64,000 bases of DNA, taken from NCBI GenBank assembly GCA_963668625.2, contig CAXXKA010000001.1:192001-256000 (forward strand), read 5' to 3'. The notes under the pieces are model-generated. The model saw nothing but the letters and a program-made list of their open reading frames with translations. It had not been told where the DNA came from and did not search any database. Source of the stretch: an uncultured candidate division Zixibacteria bacterium. GTDB lineage: Bacteria > Zixibacteria > MSB-5A5 > UBA10806 > 4484-95. This document shows, piece after piece, positions 28,434 to 48,592 of this stretch (positions are counted from its first letter, which is position 1; every line of letters starts with the position of its first letter). Both the position numbers and the translations under genes were made by a program.

Positions 28434-28964
28434 ATGAAAGTATTGATATCGGAGGAGAAATTAGCCTCGAGGATAAAAGCTTTAGCAAAGAAAATCAGGG
28501 CCGATTACAAAGATGAGGTGCCGATTTTCATTGGTATCCTGAAAGGAAGCTTTCTGTTCATGGCCGACCTGGTACGCGAATTCGGCGAGGATTGTCAACT
28601 CGATTTCATGGCAGTAGCCAGCTACGGCGCAAATAAAAAAGGATCGGGGGTTGTCAGGTTAATTAAAGATATTAATATAAATATCAAGAAGAGACGTGTA
28701 TTGATAGTCGAGGATATAATAGACTCTGGACTGACCTCCACCTATGTGAGGCAGTACTTGAAATTAAGAAAACCGAAATCTATTGATTTCGTTACGTTAT
28801 TGGATAAACCTGACGCCAGGAAGATTAAAATTGACTTGAAATATATAGGCTTTAAAGTGCCCAATAAATTCGTAGTCGGGTATGGACTGGATTATGCAGA
28901 ACGATTCCGTCAATTACCTTACATAGCAGAAATGGAAGATGAAGAAGAGGTAAAGAAACTGTGA
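28434..28964 (+). CDS. hpt: Hypoxanthine phosphoribosyltransferase
   Basis: [20 protein letters not shown]. Confidence 0.96.
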
Positions 28965-30904
28965 GTTTTAATAAATCGAATAAAAACGAACCGCCGCATA
29001 ATGACGGCCCCGGGAGCAAGAAACCACCGGAGAAAGATCCGCAGTTCAAGTGGCAGAAAAGCTTGCGACCGCTTTTATTCTGGGCCGTGATTTTCATGAC
29101 CGGCTTGCTGTTCTACCAGATACTGGCGGGCGGCGATAAAGACCGTCTGACCGTAAACTATTCCGAGTTTCTCGGTGAGGTCGAGCGTGATAATGTCAAT
29201 AAGGTGACATTCGTGGAAAAGGATATAAACGGCGAATTCCGCGAGAATTTCACTAAAACTATCAATGGCCGAGAGGTAAGCGGAATGAATTTCAGAACCC
29301 GCATACCACTCGAGGATCCCGATCTGGTAAAGTTATTGGGAAAACATAATGTCATCATCGAGGCCGAAACCTCCAGCCATTGGGGAGGCCTGCTCATAAC
29401 AGCCTTACCCTGGCTCATACTGGTGTTCTGGATGATGTTCATGCTCCGGCAGATGCAGGGCGGCGGGCCCAAAGGCTTATTCTCGTTCGGTAAATCCAGA
29501 GCCAAACTCCTGACCGGCCAGCGACCTAAAGTAACGTTCAACGATGTTGCCGGTACCGATGAGGCCAAACAGGAGCTTCAGGAGATAATAGAATTTTTGA
29601 AAGACCCGGCTAAGTTCCAAAAACTCGGCGGTAAGATTCCCAAAGGAGCGCTTCTACTTGGTCCTCCCGGATCGGGCAAGACTTTGCTCGCCAGAGCAGT
29701 CGCCGGCGAGGCGGGCGTGCCGTTTTTCTCGATGTCCGGTTCGGATTTCGTCGAGATGTTCGTAGGCGTTGGCGCTTCGCGAGTTAGAGACCTGTTCGAT
29801 CAGGGCAAGAAAAACGCGCCCTGTATTATTTTCATAGATGAGATCGACGCGGTAGGCCGTCATAGAGGAGCCGGTCTGGGCGGCGGTCATGATGAGCGGG
29901 AACAGACATTGAATCAATTACTGGTTGAGATGGATGGTTTCGAATCCAACGAGGGGGTTATTCTCATCGCTGCAACCAATCGTCCCGATGTTTTAGACCC
30001 GGCTTTACTTCGCCCCGGACGTTTCGACCGTCAGATCGTAGTCGACCAACCTGATGTCAAAGGCCGCGAGGGTATTCTTAAAGTACATGTTCGTAAAATC
30101 AACATATCCGATGAGGTGGACTTGAAAATCCTGGCTCGCGGTACGCCGGGACTCTCCGGCGCCGATCTGGCCAACCTCGTCAACGAGGCGGCATTACTGG
30201 CTGCTCGAAAGGAACATGATAAAGTAGTCATGGATGATTTCGAGGAAGCCAAGGATAAGGTCATGATGGGCACCGAGCGTCGTTCTATGGTTATTTCGCC
30301 CGAGGAGAAAAAGATCACCGCCTATCACGAGGCCGGTCACGCCCTGGTGGGCAAACTGATCAAGAACTCCGATCCGATTCACAAGGTGACAATAATACCG
30401 CGTGGTATGGCTCTGGGCGTCACTCATTACCTGCCCGTGGATGAAAGGCACAATTTATCGAAAGAATATCTCGAAACCAAATTGGTGCACCTGATGGGTG
30501 GTCGTGTTGCGGAGACGCTCGTTTTTAACGAACTAACCACCGGCGCAGGCAACGATCTCGAGAGGGCAACGGGCTTGGCGCGCAAGATGGTGTGCAATTG
30601 GGGAATGTCGGAGAAACTGGGGCCGCTCACTTTCGGCAAGAAAGAAGAGCATATTTTCCTGGGTAAGGAGATTTCCCAGCAACGAGATTTCTCCGAACAG
30701 ACGGCGTTAGATATCGACAGCGAGATAAAGAAGATCGTAATCGCGGCTCAAAAACAGGCCGAGGAATTGCTTTCCGGTAATTTAGATAAACTTCATACTC
30801 TAGCCCAGGCATTGCTGGAGCAGGAAATGCTGACCGGCAATCAGATAGATGAAATATTAAAGGAGAACGAGGAAACTGAAAAAATCACAGAAGAAAAAGA
30901 TTGA
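28961..30904 (+). CDS. ftsH: ATP-dependent zinc metalloprotease FtsH
   Basis: Two TMs, [13 protein letters not shown]. Confidence 0.97.
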
Positions 30905-31457
30905 TAAAAAATCTATCGAAGAGGGCGTCAAGCTAATATTAAAGGGTTTGAAGTTAAACGGCGATGAAGAGGGATTGAAAGATACCCCGAGACGTATCGC
31001 AGAGTTCTACGAACAATTCTTTACGGGATTGCAAAGAGACCCGGAGGAAAAGTTAAAACTGTATCGCGCGGAAAACAAGGATGAGATGATTATCGCTCGC
31101 GATATTCATTTCTTCTCCATGTGCGAACATCACTTTTTGCCTTTTTATGGTTATGTGCATATCGCCTATATTCCGGAAAACAACACTATTACGGGTTTTT
31201 CTCGTTTGGTTGATGTTATCGAGACGGTAGCGCGCAAGCCGCAGATACAGGAGCGCATGACTACAGAGATCGCTGAGATTATCATGGATGTGCTTCACCC
31301 AAAAGGCGTGCTCGTTATAGTCGAGGCCGAACAGCTATGCTTGACTATGCGTGGTTTCTCCCAGCCGGGATCGAAAACAGTCAGTTCCGCGATAAGAGGA
31401 ATTTTACGTAAGGATGCCACACGCGCCGAGGCGCTGGCATTGATAAAATCAAAATAG
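30876..31457 (+). CDS. folE: GTP cyclohydrolase I (start probably CTG 30876 or ATT 30900)
   Basis: DTPRR, CEHH, QERMT, LC..RG; conserved N-terminal helix [14 protein letters not shown] lies upstream of the first TTG. Confidence 0.93.
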
Positions 31458-31505
31458 TCCGATACGCAGCCGGCGCTCGCATCATTTTGGGAACTATATA
31501 CTATT

Positions 31506-32327
31506 ATGAATCAACCGTTACGTTCAGAAAACAGGCCTATGGTAATGGGCATATTAAATGTCACGCCCGATTCGTTTTCGGATGGTGGCAAATTTTACCT
31601 TGCCGATAACGCCGTGGCTCAGGCTCATTCGATACAGGAGCAGGGCGCTGATATTATAGATATCGGGGGCGAATCGACTCGACCGGGCGCCGCGGAAGTG
31701 TCGGTTGAGGATGAGATCAGCCGCGTGGTTCCGATTATCGAAACACTGAAAAAAAAACTCAGCATTCCCGTCTCGATCGATACGCGCAAAGCCGAAGTTG
31801 CCGAGAAAGCTTGCCTCGCGGGAGCATCGATCATAAATGATGTTTCGGGATTGGTTAATGATGAGGATATTGCAAAGGTCGCGGCTGAATTCAATACATA
31901 TTTGGTGTTGATGCACATGCGGGGTACCCCCGGCGATATGCAAAGTGATCTTCACTATGATGATTTGATCGGCGAGATTTCAGAATTTCTGGCAGATGCC
32001 GCCCGCAGGGCGATTAATATCGGCGTGGCCGCGGACAAAATCGTGGTCGATCCGGGTATTGGTTTTGGCAAAACTGTCGAACATAATTTTAGTATCATTA
32101 AAAACATTTCAGCTTTCAAAAGGTTGGGTTACCCTGTGTTGATAGGCGCGTCGCGTAAGTCGTTTATCGGTAAAACTCTCGATCTGCCGGTTGACTCGCG
32201 GCTCGAGGGTTCGCTGGCAGCCGCTGTCAGCTCGGCTTATTATGGAGCGGATATTATCAGGGTTCATGATGTTTTACCTACCGTGAGAGCGCTGAAAATA
32301 ACATCCCGGATTCTTGAGGCTGTTTGA
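31506..32327 (+). CDS. folP: Dihydropteroate synthase
   Basis: GILNVTPDSFSDGG, DPGIGFGK, SRK, IIRVHDV. Confidence 0.96.
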   Translation: MNQPLRSENRPMVMGILNVTPDSFSDGGKFYLADNAVAQAHSIQEQGADIIDIGGESTRPGAAEVSVEDEISRVVPIIETLKKKLSIPVSIDTRKAEVAEKACLAGASIINDVSGLVNDEDIAKVAAEFNTYLVLMHMRGTPGDMQSDLHYDDLIGEISEFLADAARRAINIGVAADKIVVDPGIGFGKTVEHNFSIIKNISAFKRLGYPVLIGASRKSFIGKTLDLPVDSRLEGSLAAAVSSAYYGADIIRVHDVLPTVRALKITSRILEAV

Positions 32328-33091
32328 TGACGATTTTTACTATCGGATTTATCGAGTTTACCTTAATCGACATGTTCGATGTACTTTTAGTCGGCTATTT
32401 TTTCTATAGATTCCTGCTGTTACTCAAAGGCGCCAGTTCGATTCAATTATTGGCGGGGCTGGTATCGTTTTTCGCGATTGGCATGATCGCTTACTGGCTC
32501 GAACTTTCGATGGTGACCTGGTTTATCTCGAATATAGCGGCGTTCGGAATTATAGTGGTGGTGATCATATTGCAGCCTGAGATCAGGCGGGCGTTCGCCC
32601 GGTTCGGCCAGAGCGGTATCATTCGCTTGCTTCTGAGAAGCGAATCGAAAAGCGCGGTAGATGAGATCATTCGAGCGGTGGAGAAGCTATCCGATATGCA
32701 TTACGGCGCGTTGATAGTTCTGGAAAATAACTCCAGCTTGACTAACATAGTCGATAGCGGCAAGGAGCTGAACGCTATAGTTTCGCAAGAGTTGTTACAG
32801 AGCATATTCACGCCCTACACTCCTCTTCACGATGGCGCGGTGATAATCAAGGGCGATCAGGTCATAGCCGCAGCCTGTACTTTGCCTCTTTCTCAGAATC
32901 CGGCTTACCATCGCCTGCACGGTATGAGACATAAAGCGGCGGTAGGCGTTACCGAGGAAACCGATGCGTTTGCCGTGGTTGTCAGCGAGGAAACCGGGCA
33001 AATATCCTATGCCAGTAAAGGCAAACTTCATAGGGATATTCGCCTGCAAGAATTGAAATCGATAATCAAAGAACTGTATATAAGTAATTAA
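32327..33091 (+). CDS. cdaA: Membrane-bound diadenylate cyclase (CdaA type)
   Basis: Three TMs, QPEIRR, PLHDGA, GMRHKAA, VSEETG. Confidence 0.9.
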   Translation: MTIFTIGFIEFTLIDMFDVLLVGYFFYRFLLLLKGASSIQLLAGLVSFFAIGMIAYWLELSMVTWFISNIAAFGIIVVVIILQPEIRRAFARFGQSGIIRLLLRSESKSAVDEIIRAVEKLSDMHYGALIVLENNSSLTNIVDSGKELNAIVSQELLQSIFTPYTPLHDGAVIIKGDQVIAAACTLPLSQNPAYHRLHGMRHKAAVGVTEETDAFAVVVSEETGQISYASKGKLHRDIRLQELKSIIKELYISN

Positions 33092-33092
33092 G

Positions 33093-34067
33093 ATGTTTGT
33101 AGATTACGCTGAAATCGAAGTCAAAGCCGGTAATGGCGGAGATGGTCATGTTAGTTTCCGACGGGAGAAATGGGTGCCGCGAGGCGGCCCCGATGGCGGT
33201 GACGGTGGCAAAGGCGGGGATATACTCGTGTATGCCAACGAGAACATGAGCACGCTTCTCGATTTCAAGCATAAGAACATATTCAAAGCCGAACATGGTG
33301 AAAACGGTGGCAAGCGAAATAGATCCGGTAAGAATGGCAGCGATACGCTCATACAGCTTCCGCCCGGTACGATAATTCGCGATGCCGAAACCGGCGAGTT
33401 GGTTATCGATTTGAAGCTGGACTACCAAAAACACGTAGTAGCCAAAGGCGGCAAGGGTGGCAAAGGCAATACTCATTTCAAATCGTCTACCAACCAGACG
33501 CCGCGTCAGGCGAAACCGGGACGACCGGGGCAGCAGCGCAAAGTAGAGCTGGAGCTGAAACTCATCGCCGATGTCGGCCTGGTGGGTTATCCCAACGCCG
33601 GAAAATCCACGTTATTATCGCGTATCTCCGATGCCAGGCCAAAAATCGCCAACTATCCGTTCACCACGCTGGTACCTAATCTTGGTATAGTGAAAACATC
33701 CGAGTTCCGCAATTTCGTGGTTGCCGATATTCCAGGCGTGATCGAAGGCGCTCATTCTGGCAAGGGATTGGGGCTGGAGTTTCTCCGTCACATACAGAGA
33801 ACCTCGGTGCTGGTATTTTTGATCGAGTGTACCGAAGATGATCCTGAGATTTCATATAATATGCTGCGCGCAGAACTCGGATTATTCGATCCCGAACTTC
33901 TGAACAAGCCTACCCTGGTAGGTGTAAACAAGATCGATATATTCGATGAAACATCCAGGAAGAGGTTCGATTCACTACCAGATGACTGGTTTAAAATCTC
34001 GGCAGTCACCGGCGAAAATGTCGATAAGCTGGTAAACCGCGTAACTAATCTCGTTTTTAAAAACTAA
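33093..34067 (+). CDS. obgE: GTPase ObgE/CgtA
   Basis: FRREK..PRGGPDGGDGG, GYPNAGKS, YPFTT, DIPG, NKID. Confidence 0.97.
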   Translation: MFVDYAEIEVKAGNGGDGHVSFRREKWVPRGGPDGGDGGKGGDILVYANENMSTLLDFKHKNIFKAEHGENGGKRNRSGKNGSDTLIQLPPGTIIRDAETGELVIDLKLDYQKHVVAKGGKGGKGNTHFKSSTNQTPRQAKPGRPGQQRKVELELKLIADVGLVGYPNAGKSTLLSRISDARPKIANYPFTTLVPNLGIVKTSEFRNFVVADIPGVIEGAHSGKGLGLEFLRHIQRTSVLVFLIECTEDDPEISYNMLRAELGLFDPELLNKPTLVGVNKIDIFDETSRKRFDSLPDDWFKISAVTGENVDKLVNRVTNLVFKN

Positions 34068-34083
34068 ACTTAAGACCGATGTT

Positions 34084-35182
34084 ATGATTGATACTCGTTT
34101 CGCCTTGATGCTTTCAGGTATCGGAGGTATCGGGCCGGCAAAATATAAGAATCTTATCAAGCATTTCTCCGACTACGATCAGTTGAAAAACAACGGCAAC
34201 TTCGATTTGTTCAGAGAGTGCGGTTTAACCGATACGCTCGTTAATAAATTGATGAATTTCGATGATTGGCGGAAAATCGATCGTCTTATTGAAAAAAACC
34301 AAACGAGAAAATATTAGCGTGATGTGTTTGGGGCAGGATAATTATCCTGAACTACTCTCGCATATTTATTCGCCTCCCACGGTGCTTTATGTTAAAGGCA
34401 ATACCGACCTGTTGCACCGTCCCTCCGTAGCCATAGTTGGCTCGCGTACCCCTACGGCTTACGGTCGCTCGATGGCCGCGAAAATCGCCTCGGGACTGGC
34501 GGCGGCTGGATTGGTAATCGTCTCCGGGCTGGCGACCGGTATCGATTCGGAGGCGCATAAAGCCACTCTCGATATAGGCGGTTATACCGGAGCGATTTTC
34601 GGCAATGGCATTGACGTAATTTATCCCGCCGATAACCGAGAATTGGCTGAAAAGGTATCACAAAGCGGATATTGCCTTTCGGAGTTTCCACTTGGAGCGA
34701 CCCCGGAAAGGCATAATTTCCCTCGGCGCAACCGGATTATCTCGGGCCTGTCGCTGGCGGTGGTGGTGGTCGAGGCGGCCGCTCGTTCTGGGGCACTGGT
34801 CACCGCCGATATAGCCGCAGAACAGGGGAAGGATGTTTTCGCGGTGCCCGGCCCGGCAGACAGCCCCAAGAGCGATGGCACCATTAACCTTATCAGGCAG
34901 GGTGCTTACGTTGCCGCCAACGCCGAGGATATATTGCAAAATTTAGGCTGGGATGTTTCGGCTAAAACGAATGAACCCGATAAAAGCACGATGCCCATTA
35001 ACATAGAACTTGAACTCGACGAACAGAAAGTATGCGATATGATAACATCCGGCCCTTTACATTTCGATGAATTAGTGCGAAATTTAAACTTGCCATCACC
35101 CAAACTATCCACCATCTTGCTGAAACTTGAATTGGCAGGGCTAGTGGTAAAACGGCCCGGTAACTATCTGGCGAGGTCTTGA
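34084..35182 (+). pseudogene. dprA: DNA-processing protein DprA, frameshifted at the A7 tract 34292-34298
   Basis: N-terminal GIGGIGP helix-hairpin part in one frame; AIVGSR, VSGLATGID, FPRRNRIISG, VFAVPG in another; removing one A fuses them. Confidence 0.8.
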
Positions 35183-35183
35183 A

Positions 35184-35450
35184 ATGATATCCAGGGATGT
35201 GACAATAGTAAATAAACTGGGGCTTCACGCTCGACCGGCAGCGCTTCTGGTTAAAACATCAAGCAGATTCAAAGCCGAGATTCTTTTCAAGAAGGGGAAT
35301 CTCGAGGTTAACGGTAAGAGTATAATGGGTGTTATGATGCTGGCGGCGGAACTCGGTTCGGTGATAACAATCACGGCTGACGGTAAAGATGAAGAACAGG
35401 CGGTAGCCGATATAATTAAGGTGTTTGAATCTAAATTCGGTGAAGAGTAG
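35184..35450 (+). CDS. ptsH: Phosphocarrier protein HPr
   Basis: GLHARPAA (His15), KSIMG (Ser46). Confidence 0.96.
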   Translation: MISRDVTIVNKLGLHARPAALLVKTSSRFKAEILFKKGNLEVNGKSIMGVMMLAAELGSVITITADGKDEEQAVADIIKVFESKFGEE

Positions 35451-37244
35451 ATGATACAGAAAATCAAATCGAAATCGCTCGAGGGCGTTGCGGCCTCGCC
35501 GGGAATTATCATCGGCAGGGCGGTGGTGCTCGACAAAGGCCAAATCGACGTAAAACCTGTTTCCATCAATGAATCTCAGGTCGAACGGGAGATTAATGAT
35601 TTCCGAAGGGCTATAGCTCGTGTTCGGGATGATTTGTTGAACCTGTCGGTGGCTGTCGGTAAGCGGTTGGGCAAGGAGTATGCTCATATATTCGAGGCGC
35701 AAGCCATGATAGCCGATGACCCCGTGATGATCGATCGGGTGATCGAACTGACCCGTGAACGCAGAATTCAGATAGCTTACCTGTACTACCAGGAGATAAA
35801 CGCCGTAATCGAACAGCTTTCGCAATCGGATAATCCTTATCTGAAAGAGCGGATTTTAGATATAAACTCGGTCTGTACGCGTCTATTGGGAGTGTTACAG
35901 GGCGTAAAAAAATCGGTTGTCGGGGATGTCGAGGGACCGACCGTAGTGATCGCAAAGTATCTCGCGCCCAGTGATCTACTCGGTTTCTCCGTAAGGAAGC
36001 GTGTTGGATTCGCGCTGGAACTCGGCGGCGTGACCTCACATACCTCATTGCTGGCCAAATCACTCAACCTGCCGGCGATAGTCGGTATCGGCGGTATACT
36101 CGAACATGTAAGCACCGGTGATAAAGTCATCCTCGATGGCTACTCGGGCAAGCTGATTATCCGACCCGAGCCGTCGCTAACGCAAAAGTTTAAAACCAGG
36201 GTGAATTTCCTCAAGGACTTCAACCGTACTGTCGGGCAGATTAAAAGCAAAGAGGCGGTAACCCGCGACGGCCATCAGGTGAAAGTGCTGAACAATATCG
36301 AATTACCCAACGACTCGGCCCGGGTGGCTAAATCGGGAGCCGAGGGGATAGGCCTGTTCAGAACCGAATATCTGTTTATCACCGAAAACAGCATTCCCGA
36401 TTTTGATAAACAATATAAAGCTTACAAATCCATACTGTCAAAAATGGGCGACAAGCCGGTTTTTATTCGTACGTTCGATCTGGGCGGCGATAAATTCATC
36501 GCCGATAAATTGCAGGCTGTCGATCCCAACCCGTTTCTCGGCTGGCGCGCGATAAGGTTCTGTCTGGATAGGCCGGAGCTGTTTAAAACTCAATTGAAAG
36601 CCCTGTTAAAAGCCTCCCGGTTCGGAAATCTACACATAATGTTACCGATGATATCCAACCTGGATGAACTTCGCGAAACGAAGGATTTGCTGGAGCAGTG
36701 TCGAAACGAACTCAAATCCGAACGGGTTGTTTTTAAGGAACATATTCCTCTGGGGATAATGGTCGAGGTACCCTCGGCTGTCGTATTGGCGGAACATCTG
36801 GCGCAGGAGGTTGATTTCTTCTCGATTGGCACCAATGACCTTATTCAATATACCCTGGCAGTCGACCGCACTAACGAGAAGATCACACGGTTGTACCAGA
36901 GTTTCAATCCTGCTGTATTTAAAATGATAAAACAAACCATAGACGCCGGGCATAGGCACAACATTGATGTCGGTATTTGCGGCGAGATGGCATCCAACCC
37001 GCTGGCGGCGATTGTCCTGGCCGGTATGGGGATAGACGAGCTTTCCACCAGCTATCTTTCCACCGGTATGATGAAGTATATTATCAGGAATATCGATATG
37101 AGCAAAGCCGGGGAAATGGCCGAGAAAATCATCGAGATGAAAACCGAATCGCAGGTTACCGAATATCTGAAAACCCAGGTAGATATTTATTTTTCCGAAT
37201 TAACACCGTTGTTTGAATTCATACAAGGAGCGAACCATGGTTGA
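35451..37244 (+). CDS. ptsI: PTS enzyme I
   Basis: TSHT, GLFRTE, NPFLGWRAIR, SIGTNDL, CGE. Confidence 0.96.
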   Translation: MIQKIKSKSLEGVAASPGIIIGRAVVLDKGQIDVKPVSINESQVEREINDFRRAIARVRDDLLNLSVAVGKRLGKEYAHIFEAQAMIADDPVMIDRVIELTRERRIQIAYLYYQEINAVIEQLSQSDNPYLKERILDINSVCTRLLGVLQGVKKSVVGDVEGPTVVIAKYLAPSDLLGFSVRKRVGFALELGGVTSHTSLLAKSLNLPAIVGIGGILEHVSTGDKVILDGYSGKLIIRPEPSLTQKFKTRVNFLKDFNRTVGQIKSKEAVTRDGHQVKVLNNIELPNDSARVAKSGAEGIGLFRTEYLFITENSIPDFDKQYKAYKSILSKMGDKPVFIRTFDLGGDKFIADKLQAVDPNPFLGWRAIRFCLDRPELFKTQLKALLKASRFGNLHIMLPMISNLDELRETKDLLEQCRNELKSERVVFKEHIPLGIMVEVPSAVVLAEHLAQEVDFFSIGTNDLIQYTLAVDRTNEKITRLYQSFNPAVFKMIKQTIDAGHRHNIDVGICGEMASNPLAAIVLAGMGIDELSTSYLSTGMMKYIIRNIDMSKAGEMAEKIIEMKTESQVTEYLKTQVDIYFSELTPLFEFIQGANHG

Positions 37245-38283
37245 TAATGCGTTGAAAAAACATGATCCTGACAAGATGTATGAGAAAATTAACGATTTCT
37301 ACAGGCAATTAAACGAAGGCCTCGAAACAGGCAAGCTGTCTGATCTTCCAAAAATCGAGACCGGCAAAATCAGCAATATCGTATTAGCCGGTATGGGCGG
37401 TTCGGCTATCGGCGGCGAACTGCTGAAAAGTTTCCTGAAAACCGAGCTGAAAACGCCGTTCGTGATTCATCGCAATTACGATCTTCCCGCGATAGTAAAC
37501 GAAAATTCCCTCCTGATTTGCTCTAGCTACTCCGGCGGAACCGAGGAGACTCTTTCCGCGTTCGAAGCCGGGCAAAAGATTGGCTGTAAAATACTATGTA
37601 TTACCACCGGCGGAAAACTCGGCGAGAAAGCCAAAGCCGGCGGATACGATACGATTATCATACCCTCGGGAATGATGCCCCGGGCTGCGCTGGGATATTC
37701 GTTCACACCGCTTCTTATGGCTTTCGGACGAATGGGATTTTGTTGCGACTACTCCGATGATATCAAAGCCTGTGCCAAACATCTGGAGGCCTGGTCATCC
37801 AGCTATTCATTCGAAAGCGATACCAATCGGGCATACGAATTGGCCGAAAAGATTTCAGGCAAGCTGGTCGTCATCTACTCGGGGCCTGATTATATGGACG
37901 CCGTCGGTTTACGGATAAAGGGCCAGATAAACGAAAACGCGAAACAGCACGCTTTCTTTAACGTGTTCCCCGAGTTCAATCATAACGAACTGGTTGGCTG
38001 GGAATATTCTCCGAACATAACTGATAGGTTCATAGTTCTAATTCTTCGAGACCGGGCGGATCATCCGAAAATCGCCAAACGTATGGATGTGGTGAAGAAG
38101 ATAATCGAGAGCAAAGGTATCGAGGCTGTCGAATTGGTATCGGAGGGGGAAACATTGTTGTCACGGATGTTTAACCTGATACAATTCGGGGATTTTGTAT
38201 CATACTACCTGGCCTTGATAAATGGGGTTGATCCTACCCCCATAAATGTAATAGAATACATGAAAAGCAATCTGGAAAAATAA
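37237..38283 (+). CDS. Bifunctional phosphoglucose/phosphomannose isomerase (SIS)
   Basis: GMGGS, SYSGGTEET, ENAK, PEFNHNE; AGGAG SD before ATG 37237. Confidence 0.9.
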   Translation: MVDNALKKHDPDKMYEKINDFYRQLNEGLETGKLSDLPKIETGKISNIVLAGMGGSAIGGELLKSFLKTELKTPFVIHRNYDLPAIVNENSLLICSSYSGGTEETLSAFEAGQKIGCKILCITTGGKLGEKAKAGGYDTIIIPSGMMPRAALGYSFTPLLMAFGRMGFCCDYSDDIKACAKHLEAWSSSYSFESDTNRAYELAEKISGKLVVIYSGPDYMDAVGLRIKGQINENAKQHAFFNVFPEFNHNELVGWEYSPNITDRFIVLILRDRADHPKIAKRMDVVKKIIESKGIEAVELVSEGETLLSRMFNLIQFGDFVSYYLALINGVDPTPINVIEYMKSNLEK

Positions 38284-38296
38284 AATAGGAGTTCAG

Positions 38297-39268
38297 ATGA
38301 AAGCGATCATACCCGCCGCGGGCATAGGCACCAGATTAAGACCTCACACTCATACGGCCCCTAAAGCATTGCTCCATGTTGCCGGAAAACCGATTCTCGG
38401 TCATATCATTGATGAACTCATAGCTTACAATATCCGTGAGATCGTTTTTATAGTCGGATTCCTCGGCGATAAGATTGTCGACTACGTAAAAGAGAATTAC
38501 GATATCAAAGCCAGTTTCATCGAACAAAAAGAACTCAAAGGTTTAGGCTATGCTATCTACCTGGCCAAAGAGCATTTTATCGATGAGCCGATACTGATTA
38601 TACTGGGCGATACGATTTTCGAGATAAACTTGAACGATGTATTAAATTCGGATTACGATTCGATCGGAACTAAAGTGGTTGATGACCCGAGGCGATTCGG
38701 TATCGCGGAAACAGATGGCGATTTCATTACCAGGCTGGTCGAGAAACCCGAGAACCCTACCTCTAATTTAGCTCTGACCGGAATCTACTACATAAAATCG
38801 ACCGAGCTTTTCGCTCGATCTCTAGAGGAATTGATCGTCAAGAAAATTACAACACGGGATGAATACCAGCTAACCGATGCTCTCGGCTTGATGTTGAGAC
38901 ACGGTTGCAAGATGACTACGTTCAATGTCGAGGGGTGGTACGATTGCGGCAAGAAAGAGACATTGCTGGAAACTAATCGTTATCTACTCACTCAGATAAA
39001 AACCGTGAATGGTCATGAAGACGCAATAATTATTCCTCCCGTTTATATCGCCTCCTCGGCCACGGTCACGAATTCCGTTATAGGCCCGTATGTCAGCGTC
39101 GCTGAAAACGCCGTTATCGAGTCGAGTATCGTAAAAGATTCGATCGTATCAACCAAAGCCGAGGTCAGGCATTGTCTATTGGAATCATCATTGATAGGTA
39201 ACAGCTCATCGTACACGGGACATTATCACAAGATGAATTTAGGCGATAGTTCCGAGATCGTATCCTGA
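38297..39268 (+). CDS. Sugar-phosphate nucleotidyltransferase (glucose-1-phosphate thymidylyltransferase-like)
   Basis: PAAGIGTRLRP..PK, EKP, C-terminal hexapeptide repeats. Confidence 0.88.
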   Translation: MKAIIPAAGIGTRLRPHTHTAPKALLHVAGKPILGHIIDELIAYNIREIVFIVGFLGDKIVDYVKENYDIKASFIEQKELKGLGYAIYLAKEHFIDEPILIILGDTIFEINLNDVLNSDYDSIGTKVVDDPRRFGIAETDGDFITRLVEKPENPTSNLALTGIYYIKSTELFARSLEELIVKKITTRDEYQLTDALGLMLRHGCKMTTFNVEGWYDCGKKETLLETNRYLLTQIKTVNGHEDAIIIPPVYIASSATVTNSVIGPYVSVAENAVIESSIVKDSIVSTKAEVRHCLLESSLIGNSSSYTGHYHKMNLGDSSEIVS

Positions 39269-39456
39269 TAAATTGCCTTCAATCTTCATACATTTAATAT
39301 AAATCTAATCGTTTGTACTTGCTTTATTCAATTTAACTTATTAAATTTTGCGAATGATTTAAGGGAGGGGCCCTTATTAATTATGATCCAGAGTAAAACA
39401 CTGAAATAGTTTATTCTTGATAACATACTTTTTGGATAAATAAGAGCGGAGGATAA

Positions 39457-40620
39457 ATGGCAAAAAATAATTTTTTCTTCACTTCGGAATCTGTGACTGA
39501 GGGACATCCCGATAAAGTCTGTGATCAGATTTCCGACGCGGTACTGGATGAGGTATTGAGAAGTGATAAAAAAGGTCGCGTTGCTTGCGAGACTTTTATC
39601 ACTGTCGGCCTGGTAATCGTTGGCGGTGAGATTACCACGAATACTTATGTCGATATCCAGGGCCTGGTGCGACGAGTAGTTAAGGAAATCGGCTATACCG
39701 ATTCCAAGTATGGGTTCAATTATAAAACCTGTGCGATTCTAAACGCTATCGGGATGCAATCTCCCGATATCGCTCAAGGGGTCAATCGCGGCGGCGCCGG
39801 CGACCAGGGCTTGATGATCGGTTTTGCCACCAATCAAACAAAAGAGCTGATGCCCTTGCCGATTATGCTTTCTCATGAGCTCACACAGAAACTCGCAAAG
39901 GTGCGAAAGCGGAAAGTGTTGCCGTATCTCGGTCCCGATGGCAAAGCCCAGGTGACCGTAGAGTTCGAGGATGGTAAACCCAAACGAGTGGATACCGTAC
40001 TGGTATCGTGCCAGCACACCGATGATATTCTCGATAAATCAGGCAAGAAAATTACCAATAAAGCCAAAGAGGAAATTATCGAGAAAGTTATTTTAAGTTC
40101 CGTGCCTAAAAAATATCTCGATAATAAAACCAAATACCTGATCAATCCGACAGGCAAGTTCGTCATCGGCGGCCCGCAGTCCGATACCGGCATGACCGGC
40201 CGCAAGATAATCGTCGATACTTACGGTGGCTCGGCTGCTCACGGCGGCGGCGCTTTCTCCGGTAAGGATCCGACCAAGGTGGACAGGTCAGCCTCGTACA
40301 TGGCCCGCCATGTCGCAAAAAACGTGGTGGCCTCCGGTCTGGCGAAGGTTTGCCATGTTCAATTGGCGTATGCTATCGGCGTTGCCCAGCCGGTCAGCGT
40401 GCTAATCAATACCAGAAATTCCGGCAAAGTTCCGGATAGCCGCTTGACCCAACTGGTCAAGAAACATTTCGACCTGACGCCGCTGGGTATTATCGATTAC
40501 CTGAAACTGCTTAAACCGATTTACAGGAAAACGGCCGCTTACGGACATTTCGGGCGCAGCGAAAAAGAATTCACCTGGGAAAAAACCAATATGGCTAAAA
40601 CGCTATTAAAGGATGCTTAA
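39457..40620 (+). CDS. metK: S-adenosylmethionine synthetase
   Basis: [26 protein letters not shown]. Confidence 0.98.
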
Positions 40621-41878
40621 TATGAAATACGATATCAAAGATATCAAACTGGCCTCGCAAGGTAACCTGAGAATCGAATGGGCGGAAAGATTCATGCCCG
40701 TACTGCGATTGATTCGGGATCGATTTAAAAAGCAAAAACCCCTCAAAGGTGTCAAGATGGCATGTTGTCTTCATGTGACAACCGAAACCGCAAACTTGAT
40801 GATTACCTTGAAAGCCGGCGGCGCCGAGCCTTATCTGTGCGCCTCCAATCCGCTTTCTACCCAGGATGACGTAGCCGCCTCGCTGGTGAAAGACCACAAA
40901 ATCCCGGTGTTCGCGGTCAGAGCAGAAAACAACAAGAAGTACTACAGCCATATCAACAGCTGTTTGGATGCCAACCCGATTATCACCATGGATGACGGCG
41001 CTGATTTAGTCAGCCAGCTTCACAGCAAACGCAAAAAACAGGCTGATACGATCATCGGCGGCACCGAGGAGACTACCACCGGTGTTATCCGCTTGAAAAG
41101 CATGGAGCAAAAAGGCGTGCTGCTTTTCCCGATGGTGGCTGTCAATGATTCTAAAACCAAACATTTCTTCGATAACCGCTATGGTACCGGTCAATCCACC
41201 ATCGACGGTATCCTTCGCGCTACCAACGTACTCTTAGCCGGTTCGACTCTCGTTGTCGCCGGTTACGGCTGGTGCGGCAGAGGACTTGCGGCCAAGGCCA
41301 AGGGTATGGGCGCGGATGTTATCGTGACCGAAATCGATCCGCTTAAAGGTCTCGAGGCTACCATGGATGGTTTCCGGGTGATGCCGATGAATCAGGCTGC
41401 CAAAATCGGTGATATTTTCGTCTCGATTACCGGTGATATCCATGTCATCGATAAAAAGCATTTCGAGTTGATGAAGGATGGCGCAATCGTTGCCAACTCC
41501 GGTCATTTCAATGTCGAGATAAACACGGAAGCGCTCAAGAAGATGTCACGCAAGGTACGCCAGGTTCGTCCCAGTGTCGAGGAGTTCACGGTCAAAGGCG
41601 GCAAACGCATATTCCTCCTGGGTGAGGGACGGCTTATTAATCTCTCGGCCGCCGAGGGACATCCAGCCTCCGTTATGGATATGAGTTTCGCTAACCAGGC
41701 TCTGGGCGCCGAATATATGCTGAATAATGCCGACAAACTTGAGCGTAAAGTCTATCCTGTACCTGCCAAAATAGATGATAATATTGCCATGCTGAAACTC
41801 AGGGCAATGGGTGTTAAAATAGACAAGCTGACGGCCGAACAACAACAATACCTGGCCTCGTGGGAGATCGGCACCTGA
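40613..41878 (+). CDS. ahcY: Adenosylhomocysteinase
   Basis: [29 protein letters not shown]. Confidence 0.97.
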
Positions 41879-41937
41879 TCGCATAACTCGTTCTTGACAG
41901 GCCTCTTAAGCATAGCCAAATTCGCCTCTGAAATATC

Positions 41938-41967
41938 AACCGCGACTGAAACAGTCGCGGTTTTTTT
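41938..41967 (+). terminator. Intrinsic terminator after ahcY
   Basis: AACCGCGACTG-aaa-CAGTCGCGG-TTTTTTT. Confidence 0.8.
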
Positions 41968-42052
41968 CGTCCTTTTATTTAAAGAATATCAAGCGTATTA
42001 AAAATCTTCCGACAATAAATACAGAATTTGAATTTTTAAGGAGGATAATTTG

Positions 42053-42256
42053 ATGCCTACTGGAGTAGTGAAGTGGTTTAACGACAAGAAAGGCTTCGGA
42101 TTCATTAAGCGCGAAGAGGACGACAAAGATGTATTCGTGCATTATTCTGTCATTAAAGAAGAAGGCTATAAATCATTAGCCCAGGGACAACTTGTTGAGT
42201 ACAATTTTATCAAGGGCCCTAAAGGACCTCTGGCTACGGAAGTTAATAAATTATAA
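42053..42256 (+). CDS. Cold-shock domain protein
   Basis: [22 protein letters not shown]; AGGAGG SD. Confidence 0.95.
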
Positions 42257-42303
42257 ATTGTTAAAAATCACTGACTAGATAACTTCGATTATTATTTTGA
42301 GAG

Positions 42304-43389
42304 CTATTTTCGGGCTTTCAAAAACATGAATAAGCCGATTATCAAAAAGATTATATTTCCTATCGTTGCCGCCAGCAATGGCGGTAACGACCCGTCATAA
42401 CCGAACGTTTGGCCGGTTCTTAAAATAATAAAATATATAAAGCTAACGATAACGCTTATACCGAATCCGACAGTTCCACCCGATCGACGGGGATTGGCCG
42501 CCATAGGGATACCCAGGAATATGATGATGAAATTGGCGAACGGAACGCTGAATTTCAGGTATAGTTCCACCATCTCTTTTGAGACATCCTGTTTCATCCA
42601 TTTTTTCATCTCGATAATCTCGAGCAACTCCCAAAAACGAGTTTCCCTGGGATTATCCTGGCGATGTTTCATTACGCGGGGAGTATGGGGTAAGAAGGGT
42701 GTCATCAGCGTATCGTAGGAGGCATATTCGGTCTCGACTCCCGCATCGAATAGCCTTTTGGTAGCTGATATCAGCTCCCAGGTCGAATCTGGCTCTATCC
42801 ATGTCATCCTAACCGCCCGCAATGCTACCTTGACCTCATTTTCCTGGATCTGCTGTATGATAACGTTCTCGCCGTAATTCTGGCGTTCGTTATACAACCG
42901 TGCGAAAACGATCCAGCCATCCTTGCCGGCTTTTATTACATTATGACGAACGCGTCCTATGTTGGTATCACGCTTCTCTATCTGCTCGCGCTTCAACTCC
43001 GATTTTTTCACACTCGCAGGTACGCCTATAACATCGGTGAATACTATAAGCAGCAATGAAATGCAAAAACCGGCTGCAAGTATAGGGAATGACAGGCGGT
43101 ACAACGATAACCCGGTGGCTTTCATAACCTCTAACTCATGATACTTAGCCAGTCCGCCGAAAGTGAACATCGTGGAAAGAAGTACAGAAACCGGCAGGGC
43201 GAGGATGATGATAAATGGTATGAAATAGATATAGTTCAATATAATTACTTGTATCGTGGCGTTGTGATCAATGAATTTATCGATATTCTCGATAAGGTCG
43301 ACTATTATCACTACCACGATAAATGAAAGAAGCGATATAGCTACGAGTTTCAGGAAATTGAATAGAATATATTTATCTACTATTTTCAC
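42304..43389 (-). CDS. lptG: LPS export permease LptG
   Basis: YjgP/YjgQ topology, ELEVMKATGLS; paired with lptF. Confidence 0.88.
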   Translation of the reverse strand: MKIVDKYILFNFLKLVAISLLSFIVVVIIVDLIENIDKFIDHNATIQVIILNYIYFIPFIIILALPVSVLLSTMFTFGGLAKYHELEVMKATGLSLYRLSFPILAAGFCISLLLIVFTDVIGVPASVKKSELKREQIEKRDTNIGRVRHNVIKAGKDGWIVFARLYNERQNYGENVIIQQIQENEVKVALRAVRMTWIEPDSTWELISATKRLFDAGVETEYASYDTLMTPFLPHTPRVMKHRQDNPRETRFWELLEIIEMKKWMKQDVSKEMVELYLKFSVPFANFIIIFLGIPMAANPRRSGGTVGFGISVIVSFIYFIILRTGQTFGYDGSLPPLLAATIGNIIFLIIGLFMFLKARK

Positions 43390-44735
43390 TTTTTCGATCC
43401 CGCGAACAACTGCATTATAAGGTCCATGCCCTCCACCGTGGTGCGCTTGTTAACCACGTAAGTGAGGTAAAAACCGAAAATGCCAATAACGATATTCGGT
43501 AACCACATCGAAAGCGCTCCCGAAAGGTACATCCTGTCGGCAAGCTCCTCGCCGCCTATGAGAAAAGCCCAGTATATGATGAAGAAGAATAGCGACAATC
43601 CGATACTGGTAGCCATACCACCCTTACGGGTCATCACCCCCAGAGGCGCGCCGATGAGTACGAATACTATACAGGCGACCGGGATCGAGAATTTTTTGTG
43701 TATCTCTACGCTTCTCGAATTGACCTGCTTTTCGTAAGTTTTGTGGTTTCGCTGCTCGTATTCTATCTTACTGATTAAATTCTCCAGCTTCGTGATTTCC
43801 TCGATCAGCCCGCCATATACTGATTGAGATCGCTTGTTTTCTTCAACCTCGTTACTGACATTTAAAAGAGTTTCTATATCGGAATTAACCACACTATCGA
43901 TTTTAGCTAATGTGCTGTCGGCTTTTCTCTGGTATTTGCGGTTATACTCCAGCATCATTCCGACTGACATCTCCCTATCGCCGCGCGAACCCTCGGACGA
44001 CCTGACAAGCTCGTTCGACTTTCCCTCTATTGTCATTGTCTGTTTCTTGAAATGTACGCGGCGATAACGCTCGATATCTTCGGGATCGGGCTCGTGTATT
44101 TCCCCGTCGTACAAATCCAGCACCAGCCGCGAGCCATCCGGGGAGAACCTTATCTCGCCGGTCTTTGCCGTGATAGTCCTGGGTGTTTGGGGATCTTTAT
44201 GTTCGAGAATCGTAACATCGCCGATTTCGTTGGTTTCGTTATTCACCTTTCGCACGAGTATGTGGTAGCCGTCGAAGTAATCCAGAAATATGTTTTCCTC
44301 GATACTCCAGGTAGGCTTTTTGCGAGTGATGTCGGACATCAGGAGACGCGCGCGATGATTTGATTCGGGCAGGATTCTATCGTTAAATAGCATCAGAATA
44401 GCGGCTAAAATCATGCCGAATAGTATCCCCGGTTTCATCAGGTTGATAAGCGATACACCGCAGGCTTTGAAAGCTATTACCTCGCTATCCGAGGAGAGAC
44501 GGCCATAGCCCATCAAAGCGGCAATCAGCACCGCCATCGGTACCGAAAGTGCCAGCATCCAGGCTAAGCTGAGCGCGAACACCTCTAGTACTACATTGGC
44601 CGGTAATCCCTTGTTGATTATCTTCTTGAGCACATCGAGGATGAAATCCATCAACAACACGAATGTGATAACTCCCAGGCCGAAAAAAAACGGCCCGACC
44701 AGTTCCTTTATCACGTATTTCCAGATAATTTTCAT
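43386..44735 (-). CDS. lptF: LPS export permease LptF
   Basis: RLSSDSEVIAFKACG, EIHKKFSIP; start at ATG 44735 (MKIIWKY). Confidence 0.88.
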   Translation of the reverse strand: MKIIWKYVIKELVGPFFFGLGVITFVLLMDFILDVLKKIINKGLPANVVLEVFALSLAWMLALSVPMAVLIAALMGYGRLSSDSEVIAFKACGVSLINLMKPGILFGMILAAILMLFNDRILPESNHRARLLMSDITRKKPTWSIEENIFLDYFDGYHILVRKVNNETNEIGDVTILEHKDPQTPRTITAKTGEIRFSPDGSRLVLDLYDGEIHEPDPEDIERYRRVHFKKQTMTIEGKSNELVRSSEGSRGDREMSVGMMLEYNRKYQRKADSTLAKIDSVVNSDIETLLNVSNEVEENKRSQSVYGGLIEEITKLENLISKIEYEQRNHKTYEKQVNSRSVEIHKKFSIPVACIVFVLIGAPLGVMTRKGGMATSIGLSLFFFIIYWAFLIGGEELADRMYLSGALSMWLPNIVIGIFGFYLTYVVNKRTTVEGMDLIMQLFAGSKK

Positions 44736-44742
44736 CCCTGCC

Positions 44743-44771
44743 ATTATATCGGAAGCCTTACTTTTTAACAA
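44743..44771 (-). promoter_or_regulatory. sigma70 promoter, probably giving a leaderless lptF mRNA
   Basis: Minus strand TTGTTA-N17-TATAAT, then 7 nt to ATG. Confidence 0.55.
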
Positions 44772-44889
44772 GGGCTTTCTATCTCTCGTTTTATGATTTA
44801 TAGGCCTATTTTTGAAAAATGTTTTGTTTTTTAGCGCTTTTTTTTGTATGTCTTTAATGAGTTACTAATCATTGAATAGGGGCCACTAT

Positions 44890-45855
44890 ATGAAACAGAC
44901 ATGGATCGAGGAGTTAAGGCCGGGTACGGATGTTAAAGAAAAATTCGTTGTACGGAAAATAGAGGTAAGAGAATACAGCGGTAAAAAATACTTGAGCCTC
45001 GAGTTCGGCGATAAATCCGGACGTATTGGCGGCGTATGCTGGGAGGCCGCCGATGAGTATCATCGTACGATTAAAAACGGCAATGTTGTAACAGTCGAGG
45101 GTAATGTTGGAACATACCGGGAGATGCCGCAAATAACGGTTGTGGCAATGACCCGGGTTGCCCAGAAAGACTACGACCCGCTGGATTATTTACCCCGGGG
45201 GCCGCATGATCCTAACCTGATAATAAAGGAGATCGACCAGATAATCGATGAGGTGCAGGATATACATTTTAAAAGCCTGTTAACCGAGGTATTCAATGAT
45301 GGTATACTGAGGCGGCAGTTTATTTTCTCGCCGGCCGCTAAACTCTGGCATCACTCGTATGTCGGCGGTCTGGCGGAGCATACGTTGAATGTAACCAAAC
45401 TATGTATTATGGTTTGCGAGGTATATAATAATAACGATATCGATAAAGACTTACTAATAGCCGGGGGGCTGTTGCACGATATCGGCAAAGCGGAAACCTA
45501 CTCATTAGACAATTTCTTCGATTACACCGATGACGGCCGCCTGCTGGGCCATATCGTAATTGCTGACCGACTGATCAGCAACAAGATAGCGAGGTTAAGC
45601 GGATTTCCCAAAACCAAACAGAAGTTGATAAGACACCTGGTGCTATCTCATCAAGGAGAATACGAACAGGCATCTCCGGTCTTGCCTCAGACCCTCGAGT
45701 CTAATATATTGTATGTTCTTGATCTTCTGGACTCGCGAGTGGGGGGCATCCTCAAGGTGATGCAAAAATCCAGACAACCGGGACAAAGATGGTCGGGATA
45801 TGTGAAATTGTTAGAGAGGTATTTGTACTTTGGAGACAACCCGAAAGAGGATTAG
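44890..45855 (+). CDS. YhaM/Cbf1-like OB-fold + HD-domain exonuclease
   Basis: PAA..HH...GGLAEH, LLHDIGK, LLGHI. Confidence 0.88.
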   Translation: MKQTWIEELRPGTDVKEKFVVRKIEVREYSGKKYLSLEFGDKSGRIGGVCWEAADEYHRTIKNGNVVTVEGNVGTYREMPQITVVAMTRVAQKDYDPLDYLPRGPHDPNLIIKEIDQIIDEVQDIHFKSLLTEVFNDGILRRQFIFSPAAKLWHHSYVGGLAEHTLNVTKLCIMVCEVYNNNDIDKDLLIAGGLLHDIGKAETYSLDNFFDYTDDGRLLGHIVIADRLISNKIARLSGFPKTKQKLIRHLVLSHQGEYEQASPVLPQTLESNILYVLDLLDSRVGGILKVMQKSRQPGQRWSGYVKLLERYLYFGDNPKED

Positions 45856-47558
<1,703 letters not shown>

Positions 47559-47763
47559 CCTGTTCGGTGAAGATGTTATGATTAAAGAGCTTGAAACGGG
47601 TTTCGGGCAAGCCGGTTAATCGGGCATGATCGAGAACTATTTGAGCTTCTCCGATGTTATATTCAGACAGAAATAGGTAAATGTATTGAAAATTGACTTG
47701 TTTGTTGGGCTGTTTTGTGTTAATTATTAGGCCTTGATGGAAATTAAAAAGAAAGGTGATTGA

Positions 47764-48072
47764 ATGCAATTTTTGTTGTTAATGGCTCAACCCGAGGGCG
47801 GGGGCGGCGGTAATCCTCTTACTATGTTATTACCGTTCGTGCTTATTTTCGTTATTTTCTACTTTTTCATGATTCGCCCTCAACAGAAAAAGCAAAAAGA
47901 GCATCAAGCCATGATTACATCACTTAAAAAAGGTGATAAAGTTGTAACCAGTGGCGGGATGTTCGGCACTATCTGGGGAATCGACGAGAAAGAAAATAAA
48001 GTAGTCTTGAAAGTCGGCGATGATGTTAAAATCGAGTATTTAAAAAGCTCAATAGCAGGTAAGGTGAATTAG
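47764..48072 (+). CDS. yajC: Preprotein translocase subunit YajC
   Basis: FYFFMIRPQQK, GDKVVTSGG. Confidence 0.95.
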   Translation: MQFLLLMAQPEGGGGGNPLTMLLPFVLIFVIFYFFMIRPQQKKQKEHQAMITSLKKGDKVVTSGGMFGTIWGIDEKENKVVLKVGDDVKIEYLKSSIAGKVN

Positions 48073-48073
48073 T

Positions 48074-48592
48074 ATCAGCAAGATTATTCCTATCAGGATT
48101 TACGGTGATGATGTACTCCGGGAGGTCTCGGAGGAGATCGAAAATATAGATGGTGAATTAGTCGACTTGATGAAAGCGACTATTTATACGATGCAAGATA
48201 ACAAGGGTTTGGGGCTGGCCGCCAATCAGGTGGGTATACAAAAACGCTTTTTTGCTATCGATATGTCTTATTTCGATGTTGTCAAGCCACCGATGGTTAT
48301 CGTAAATCCTAAAATCACGGAGCTTTCGGATAACAATATTTTTGGCGAGGAAGGGTGTTTGTCGTTTCCAGGATTATTCCAGGAAATTGAGCGCCCCGAC
48401 AGGGCCATAGTGCAGGGGCTTGATATCGATGGTAACGAGATCACTATCGAGGCAAATGGTTTCGTTGCCCGGGTTATGCAGCACGAGTTCGACCATTTAA
48501 ACGGCAAACTTTTTATCGATCATTTATCCAAAATAAAAAGAAGCTTGATTCGCGGTAAACTGAAGAAGATCAAGGCCGGTGAGTCGGTGTAA
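48074..48592 (+). CDS. def: Peptide deformylase (start probably ATC 48074 or ATT 48068)
   Basis: GLGLAANQ, EGCLS, QHEFDHLNG; IYGDDVLR N-terminus lies upstream of the first TTG. Confidence 0.95.
   Translation: MSKIIPIRIYGDDVLREVSEEIENIDGELVDLMKATIYTMQDNKGLGLAANQVGIQKRFFAIDMSYFDVVKPPMVIVNPKITELSDNNIFGEEGCLSFPGLFQEIERPDRAIVQGLDIDGNEITIEANGFVARVMQHEFDHLNGKLFIDHLSKIKRSLIRGKLKKIKAGESV

Follow-up and report, generated by a model that had tools for sequence, protein, structure and literature searches.

Three genes for well-known enzymes have no ATG, GTG or TTG at the position where their proteins should begin in a stretch of 64,000 nucleotides (nt) from an uncultured candidate division Zixibacteria bacterium (assembly GCA_963668625.2, contig CAXXKA010000001.1, positions 192,001 to 256,000 of the forward strand; the whole stretch is hereafter called the window). 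These are folE (GTP cyclohydrolase I, proposed coding sequence 30900-31457), tgt (tRNA-guanine transglycosylase, 46428-47558) and def (peptide deformylase, 48074-48592), all of which lie on the + strand, as do the other features of the window described below. The codons found in place of canonical starts, preferably ATT for folE, ATA for tgt and ATC for def, are homologous to canonical start codons of relatives, are conserved within the family and are located at the stop codon of the gene upstream. The three genes are probably intact, and it is likely that their near-cognate starts are kept working by Shine-Dalgarno (SD) pairing and by the coupling of termination to reinitiation, an arrangement that sets a low output of the enzymes.

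The initial annotation of this DNA placed the family-typical N-terminus of each protein between an in-frame stop codon and the first ATG, GTG or TTG, and the stop-to-stop frames and the family profiles agree with this placement. The frame of folE runs from 30861 to 31457 and contains its first canonical codon at TTG 30948 (codon 30); that of tgt runs from 46389 to 47558, with GTG 46482 (codon 32), and that of def from 48068 to 48592, with TTG 48167 (codon 34). Codon 12 of the folE frame corresponds to position 2 of NF006826 and codon 19 to position 1 of TIGR00063 and of PF01227. In the tgt frame, codon 19 corresponds to position 1 of TIGR00430, of which positions 1-364 of 368 are aligned (Pfam TGT is also matched), and in the def frame codon 6 corresponds to position 2 of NF001159 (TIGR00079 and Pfam Pep_deformylase are also matched). 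Profile alignment thus places 11 to 28 family-typical positions 5′ of the first canonical codon of the three genes. The candidate codons proposed at the same time, namely CTG 30876 and ATT 30900 for folE, ATA 46428 for tgt, and ATT 48068 and ATC 48074 for def, are all present. An SD-like sequence had been ascribed to every candidate; it is found before the ATC of def (duplex with the anti-SD sequence, -8.9 kcal/mol), the ATA of tgt (-7.4 kcal/mol) and the CTG of folE (-8.7 kcal/mol), but not before the ATT of folE (-1.0 kcal/mol). In the same way, the ATT of folE, the ATA of tgt and the ATC or ATT of def are located at or overlap the upstream stop, as had been described for all of them, whereas the CTG of folE sits 26 nt inside ftsH. 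Among confident canonical starts of this genome 32% have an SD duplex of -7 kcal/mol or lower, compared with 6% of interior codons.

For comparison, each gene was searched for in 30 related genomes of the class, and the near-cognate codons proved to be conserved in 10 of 10 (folE), 8 of 10 (tgt) and 5 of 10 (def) genomes of the family. Among the 30 class loci compared for folE, the ATT (30900-30902) is kept in all ten family loci in the context AAG/AAA ATT GAT/AAT/GAC. At the homologous codon the sister family has ATG GAT AA. in 12 of 14 loci and GTG GAT AA. in the other two, and in one of its genomes (G019) an in-frame TAG lies directly 5′ of this ATG. In six of the ten family loci the conserved core of FolE is reached without any canonical codon, and the first one is located at codons 25-65. 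The upstream gene ftsH (28961-30904 in the list of open reading frames (ORFs); Pfam Peptidase_M41, AAA and FtsH_ext) terminates at TGA 30902-30904, so that its stop and the folE codon share 5 nt as ATTGA, and the same overlap (ATTGA or ATTAA) is present in the three family loci that were resolved by script. In four of five loci of the sister family, ftsH ends 8 nt past the first base of the folE ATG, in the sequence ATGGATAA. When this 8-nt overlap is compared with the 5-nt overlap of ATTGATAA, a single G-to-T change appears to have given rise to the weak folE start and the earlier ftsH stop together. The alternative start, CTG (30876-30878), is in frame within ftsH, follows an AAGGAG sequence (30860-30865, in the 3′ end of ftsH) at a distance of 10 nt, and is found in eight of the ten family genomes. 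Homology to the ATG and GTG of the sister family favours the ATT and SD strength favours the CTG; the ATT is preferred, at slightly better odds, and the predicted folE start is non-canonical in this genome whichever of the two codons is used.

The ATA of tgt (46428-46430) is found in eight of the ten family loci, two codons before a conserved Phe and with a GGAG-like sequence upstream, which in this genome is GGGAG (46415-46419), located 8 nt before the ATA; in the remaining two family loci, which belong to a single genus, the codon is ATG, and in the sister family it is TTG in 13 of 13 loci. No canonical start precedes the conserved N-terminus in relatives such as G001, G003, G005 and G006. 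The frame of G005 is interrupted by a TGA one codon 5′ of the ATA, and the following 29 codons include no canonical codon, which pins the start of this gene at the ATA, and in G009 an ATG stands immediately 5′ of the ATA. The position of the codon also agrees with tgt genes of other phyla, of which 80 loci were fetched and 67 were scored, the 13 without a match to the PxFMPV motif being left unscored: in all 67 a canonical start is located 24-34 codons before the motif, and the ATA of this genome lies at the same distance from it. The upstream gene, a flavin-reductase-like ORF (45856-46431; Pfam Flavin_Reduct), stops at TAG 46429-46431 and therefore overlaps the ATA as ATAG. In seven of eight loci the corresponding ORF of 190-191 codons ends 4 nt past the first base of the ATA (ATAA or ATAG), an arrangement that is the AUA counterpart of ATGA; the junction in G009 is ATGATAA.

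The def frame opens after an in-frame TGA (48065-48067), and the start must consequently lie within the next few codons. The preferred codon, ATC (48074-48076), is located 1 nt past the stop of yajC (47764-48072, stop TAG 48070-48072; Pfam YajC) in the arrangement TAG-T-ATC, and 7 nt after AAGGTG (48061-48066), which lies within the end of yajC and is conserved in G001, G002, G006 and G009. The alternative, ATT (48068-48070), is in frame directly after the TGA. An ATT or ATC is found 7-8 nt after the conserved AAGGTG in all five genomes of two genera (three and two genomes, respectively), and the other 25 of the 30 class loci, this genome being counted among the 30, have TTG, ATG or GTG just before the core LPI.IYG..VLR, which exemplifies the conservation of the leader as peptide. 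The junction with yajC has a 1-nt spacer before the ATT or ATC in four loci and an ATTAG overlap in G001. The first canonical codon lies 25 codons into the frame in G001 and 51 codons in G002; in G006 the sole earlier TTG encodes the conserved Leu of ILP, and in G009 a GTG directly follows the ATC. Inside def of this genome, a TTG-ATG pair (48167-48172) follows GGTGA (duplexes of -6.3 and -5.8 kcal/mol) and is a candidate internal start for a Def without about 31 residues. Downstream of def lies fmt (48592-49521), which overlaps the def stop by 1 nt and begins with an ordinary ATG, position 1 of Formyl_trans_N being aligned with its first residue. The neighbours in the window that were identified by profile are ftsH, the Flavin_Reduct ORF, yajC, fmt and folP.

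Initiation at these codons would most simply be carried out by the ordinary initiator tRNA reading AUU (or CUG) in folE, AUA in tgt and AUC in def; among the 46 tRNAs of the genome, no variant initiator was found and one standard initiator with anticodon CAU is present. Because each start is placed at the stop of a co-directional upstream gene (ftsH, the flavin-reductase ORF or yajC), a ribosome that finishes the upstream gene could re-initiate there, and the SD sequences 7-8 nt upstream would add to re-initiation on tgt and def. The distance between start and upstream stop ranges from -5 to +1 nt, with a 5-nt overlap for folE, a 4-nt overlap for tgt and a 1-nt spacer for def (a 5-nt overlap in G001), and this geometry is kept in relatives. 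The initial annotation had offered, as an equal possibility, that the weak starts are a by-product of translational coupling, and the anatomy of the junctions fits that view. According to PMC10666635, efficient termination-reinitiation requires an overlap or a very short distance, and a stop/start overlap of 5 nt is possible only with ATT, as ATTGA, ATTAG or ATTAA; such overlaps are more than 1000-fold rarer than 4-nt overlaps in the annotations considered there. A consensus scan for promoter-like and terminator-like sites on the + strand found none at the three junctions, and its totals, which barely exceed those of shuffled sequences (40 against 31.5 ± 6.0 and 28 against 21.2 ± 5.2), do not constitute functional evidence. 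In evolutionary terms, the codons would be derived from ATG or TTG starts through small changes. As a result, three low-abundance enzymes would be produced at a low level that depends on the upstream gene, two of the upstream products, FtsH and YajC, being more abundant.

Several observations weigh against this explanation. Initiation from ATT reaches about 0.3% of that from ATG in E. coli (PMC10666635, citing Hecht et al. 2017), which seems little for essential enzymes if coupling does not increase it. The start of folE is ambiguous, since the ATT has no SD sequence and the CTG upstream of it has one. In addition, the folE frame of four of the ten family genomes offers a canonical codon (ATG or TTG) some 10 codons before the ATT, directly after an in-frame stop and AGGAG. 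The conservation of the ATT in folE and of the ATA in tgt could partly be explained by constraint on the overlapping stop codon and C-terminus of the upstream gene. Finally, the TTG and ATG at 48167 and 48170 of def, with their moderate SD-like sequence, could conceivably act as an internal start that yields an extra product.

Starts of this class are rare in the genome. With a hexamer-based caller, 3763 ORF genes were predicted; 3192 of them were confident calls away from contig edges, and the confident starts (n = 1289) comprise 932 ATG, 195 TTG and 162 GTG codons with AGGAG or GGAGG upstream. At least 12 free codons precede the first canonical start in 454 genes, the coding scores of which centre around 0, and 31 of these score above 0.6 bits per codon; the leaders of folE, tgt and def score 0.72, 1.26 and 0.88 bits per codon, respectively. 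In 33 genes with at least 12 free codons the frame extends in the 5′ direction into the preceding gene, and seven of these, including folE, tgt and def, score at least 0.45. A lineage-wide relaxation of start-codon use was considered and rejected, because the leader scores centre near 0 and few genes exceed the cut-off. This screen is insensitive, having missed infC (-0.01), and the same is true of the SD screen, in which no enrichment of SD duplexes of -7 kcal/mol or lower before ATT, ATC or ATA was found among 25,793 leader codons (53 of 959 ATT, 39 of 574 ATC and 64 of 919 ATA, with 6.7% overall), nor by a looser test. The value for leader CTG (31 of 271) is similar to that for CTC (30 of 250).

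A census by gene pairs was made with 781,160 bases, on seven contigs, of the sister-genus genome G006, in which 743 genes had a match and 459 pairs had at least 45% identity and an aligned N-terminus. In 58 of the 459 pairs at least five conserved codons precede the first canonical start, and in 48 of these 58 the canonical codon of G006 maps onto the first canonical codon of this genome, def and murB being included by coincidence of downstream codons. After inspection and Pfam searches, which gave no need for a non-canonical start in six doubtful G006 pairs, a canonical start is lacking at the conserved N-terminus in four pairs only: infC, folE, tgt and def; selD is accounted for by an in-frame TGA and murB by a probable assembly indel. 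Three of the four are among the 77 pairs located on the syntenic contig, whose choice was guided by the finding in folE, tgt and def, and one (infC) is among the 382 pairs on the six others. Leader conservation judged by tblastn against G001 and G006 was confounded by overlap with upstream genes, and the inspected cases were canonical except for selD, with an in-frame TGA, and an ambiguous CTGA/TTG case at G000:C1:164422. When 20 candidates from the top of the screens were searched with Pfam, a profile start 5′ of the first canonical codon was found only in murB, DUF819 and infC, and the others are mostly fragments (C-terminal parts of DUF4846 and of RecF) or uninformative at the N-terminus. 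Of these, murB (G000:C1:105147-106073) was rejected as an additional case: relatives have an in-frame GTG and here an out-of-frame ATG stands beside a G-run, where an assembly indel is likely. The recF gene (G000:C8:432392-433264) is broken at a run of A. The anomalies of murB and recF resemble homopolymer indels, and frame anomalies seen in a single genome consequently need care in this assembly of 10 contigs.

A CTG start is also predicted in an unrelated gene. This is a DUF819 membrane-protein gene (G000:C10:174546-175730, + strand), in which CTG is located 6 nt after AAGGAG and away from any operon junction; the homologous codon is ATG in the same-genus genome G001 and ATG or TTG in the sister family, and the CTG can be regarded as a putative species-level near-cognate start in a gene of unrelated function. 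The start of infC, by comparison, is shared by the whole class. In this genome (G000:C6:680274-680810, + strand), position 1 of the IF3_N profile lies four codons before the first GTG, and GGAGG is followed after 7 nt by ATA. Of 28 class loci, 26 lack a canonical start 5′ of the domain; most of these carry ATA 5-8 nt after GGAGG, one has ATC and one ATT. This class-wide ATA of infC indicates that AUA is usable as a start codon in this clade.

If the near-cognate codons were not the true starts, the proteins might begin at TTG 30948, GTG 46482 and TTG 48167 and be shorter at the N-terminus, the frame upstream being untranslated. Gene callers that are restricted to ATG, GTG and TTG would give precisely this result, and TTG 48167 in def is preceded by an SD-like sequence of moderate strength (-6.3 kcal/mol); the TTG of folE (+0.1 kcal/mol) and the GTG of tgt (-2.7 kcal/mol) have none. 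Moreover, the stretches that would be skipped align with the initial 11-28 profile positions, show protein-level conservation in both the family and the class, and have hexamer scores of 0.72-1.26 bits per codon, whereas the genome centres on about 0. The first canonical codon also varies in position among relatives and in some lies within or past a conserved motif, as in tgt of G001 and G003, where it is located beyond PxFMPV, and in folE of G003, where it is codon 65. Downstream initiation is decidedly unlikely. A different possibility is that the enzymes are produced as extensions of the upstream proteins by frameshifting or read-through, as the open frames of folE and tgt, which reach 13 codons into the upstream gene, would permit. 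This is very improbable, because in-frame stops stand directly before ATT 48068 of def (TGA), one codon before the ATA of tgt in G005 (TGA) and directly before the ATG of folE in G019 (TAG); no slippery-site evidence turned up, although none was searched for. Errors of sequencing or assembly that hide ordinary ATG starts can hardly be credited, even though this assembly seems to carry homopolymer indels at recF and murB, because these codons recur in as many as nine further genomes that were assembled independently, as well as in contigs derived from reads. Logan contigs of runs X1 (spanning 30500-33592 and 40243-48700) and X2 (30500-36103 and 43175-48700) show zero differences across the three start sites; the two runs are from one sample that is possibly the source of the assembly, and such contigs may hide rare variants. 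A contig of X4, from a different study, spans 47983-48229 and differs at one position, 48057, outside the def start, so that it matches the def site. Relatives and read-derived contigs are thus in accord with the window, and the comparative evidence on this question is stronger than that of the read-derived contigs.

The initial annotation also proposed that the weak starts could form a translational regulon sensing initiation stringency or formylation status. As formulated here, the AUN codons of the three genes and the AUA of infC would be a selected module, the output of which rises when the stringency of initiation factor 3 (IF3) or the formylation of the initiator falls, with feedback on the formyl donor, deformylation and queuosine-tRNA. 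IF3 selects against initiation at codons such as AUU, AUA and AUC, and any AUN start should respond to this factor. The absence of a canonical infC start in 26 of the 28 class genomes means that an IF3-sensitive start is in place, and conserved non-canonical starts were restricted to infC, folE, tgt and def in the census of 459 pairs. In E. coli, one-carbon metabolism has been linked to the fidelity of initiation through FolD (PMC7949028). Nevertheless, such a regulon is unlikely. The three changes are of different phylogenetic depth, being found in 10, 8 and 5 of the 10 family genomes, and genera with the ATT of folE and the ATA of tgt retain TTG at def; fmt, folP, queA, folD and map all have ATG at the N-terminus given by the profile; and the CTG of DUF819 belongs to a gene unrelated to these pathways. 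The functional grouping was drawn only after the genes had been seen, and tgt and def are not independent of each other, because they appear to belong to one operon. No RNA family or riboswitch of Rfam was detected in the window at gathering thresholds, which also counts against shared regulation. A module titrated by IF3, in which lowered stringency would lead to more GTP cyclohydrolase I (and with it more formyl donor and preQ), deformylase and Tgt and thereby restore the quality of initiation, is likewise unlikely, and the claim of a regulon is left without support. Near-cognate initiation that is maintained by SD pairing and termination-reinitiation remains the favoured explanation for folE, tgt and def.

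Other deviations from standard decoding were encountered in the genome. A peroxiredoxin gene (G000:C6:586214-586957, - strand) contains an in-frame TGA at the position of the peroxidatic cysteine (FYPGDFTFV-U-PTE) and likely encodes a selenoprotein; a tRNA-Sec with anticodon TCA is present. In a selD-like gene named by eye (G000:C1:154284-155282, + strand), which is located upstream of the window, the frame continues 5′ through an in-frame TGA, and G001 and G006 share the sequence that follows it; this TGA is probably a selenocysteine codon. An ORF that resembles release factor 2, also identified by eye (G000:C6:368729-369808, + strand), is associated with 76 coding-like codons that have no start, as would fit the programmed +1 frameshift of prfB. 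A gene for a secreted protein (G000:C1:164422-165987, + strand) has, four codons ahead of its first TTG, a CTG that forms CTGA with the upstream stop; the first canonical codon in G006 maps well inside the protein, and the CTG is a possible but ambiguous start. Long coding-like leaders without a start were further seen in several ORFs with Por_Secre_tail, the sorting domain of type IX secretion (L189, L195, L197, L198 and L203, on G000:C8, C6 and C1), and these are probably pieces of broken or mis-assembled genes for large surface proteins.

Among known near-cognate starts, those of E. coli infC, which encodes IF3, and pcnB, both of which begin with AUU, come closest. There, an AUN codon with an SD sequence is conserved among relatives and gives weak, IF3-sensitive initiation, and the infC of this class displays the pattern with ATA. 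The starts of folE, tgt and def resemble them in the conserved AUN codon and, for tgt and def, in the SD sequence, and their initiation would be expected to be weak and IF3-sensitive. The genes described here encode enzymes and their starts are placed on the upstream stop codon, and autoregulation by the gene product cannot apply. With regard to junctions, the arrangement resembles the termination-reinitiation described for ATGA and TGATG (Huber et al. 2019, PMC6728339; Huber et al. 2023, PMC10666635), as co-directional gene pairs are separated by -5, -4 and +1 nt. Overlaps of 5 nt are handled as possible annotation errors or rare events in these two papers, whereas the ATTGA of ftsH and folE is conserved family-wide; similarly, ATAA and ATAG represent an AUA version of ATGA, and coupling is predicted here from the junction sequence. 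Weak initiation by the normal initiator tRNA at AUU, AUA, AUC and CUG is also described for E. coli (Hecht et al., 10.1101/063800, PMC5499595), with reporters in that work, whereas the putative starts described here belong naturally to genes of the essential type in a lineage that is uncultured. Starts at near-cognate codons and stop/start coupling are already known, and published work mentions the 5-nt overlap with ATT as a possible rare event. The novelty lies in a set of conserved examples in three familiar genes of one uncultured family, together with a clear path of one mutation for folE.

For the family, gene callers that accept only ATG, GTG and TTG would remove 16, 18 and 31 residues from FolE, Tgt and Def, counted from ATT 30900, ATA 46428 and ATC 48074, and the truncated models would spread into protein databases. 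A regulon, if real, would connect the stringency of start-codon selection with folate, queuosine and deformylation, a relation to which the present evidence lends no support. The ATTGA of ftsH and folE and the ATAA or ATAG at tgt are natural, conserved overlaps of a kind that is impossible with canonical codons or in which AUA replaces AUG, and in folE one base change shortens the overlap from 8 nt to 5 nt at the cost of a weak start. The junctions of folE, tgt and def are well suited to studies of the extent to which near-cognate starts can be rescued by termination-reinitiation.

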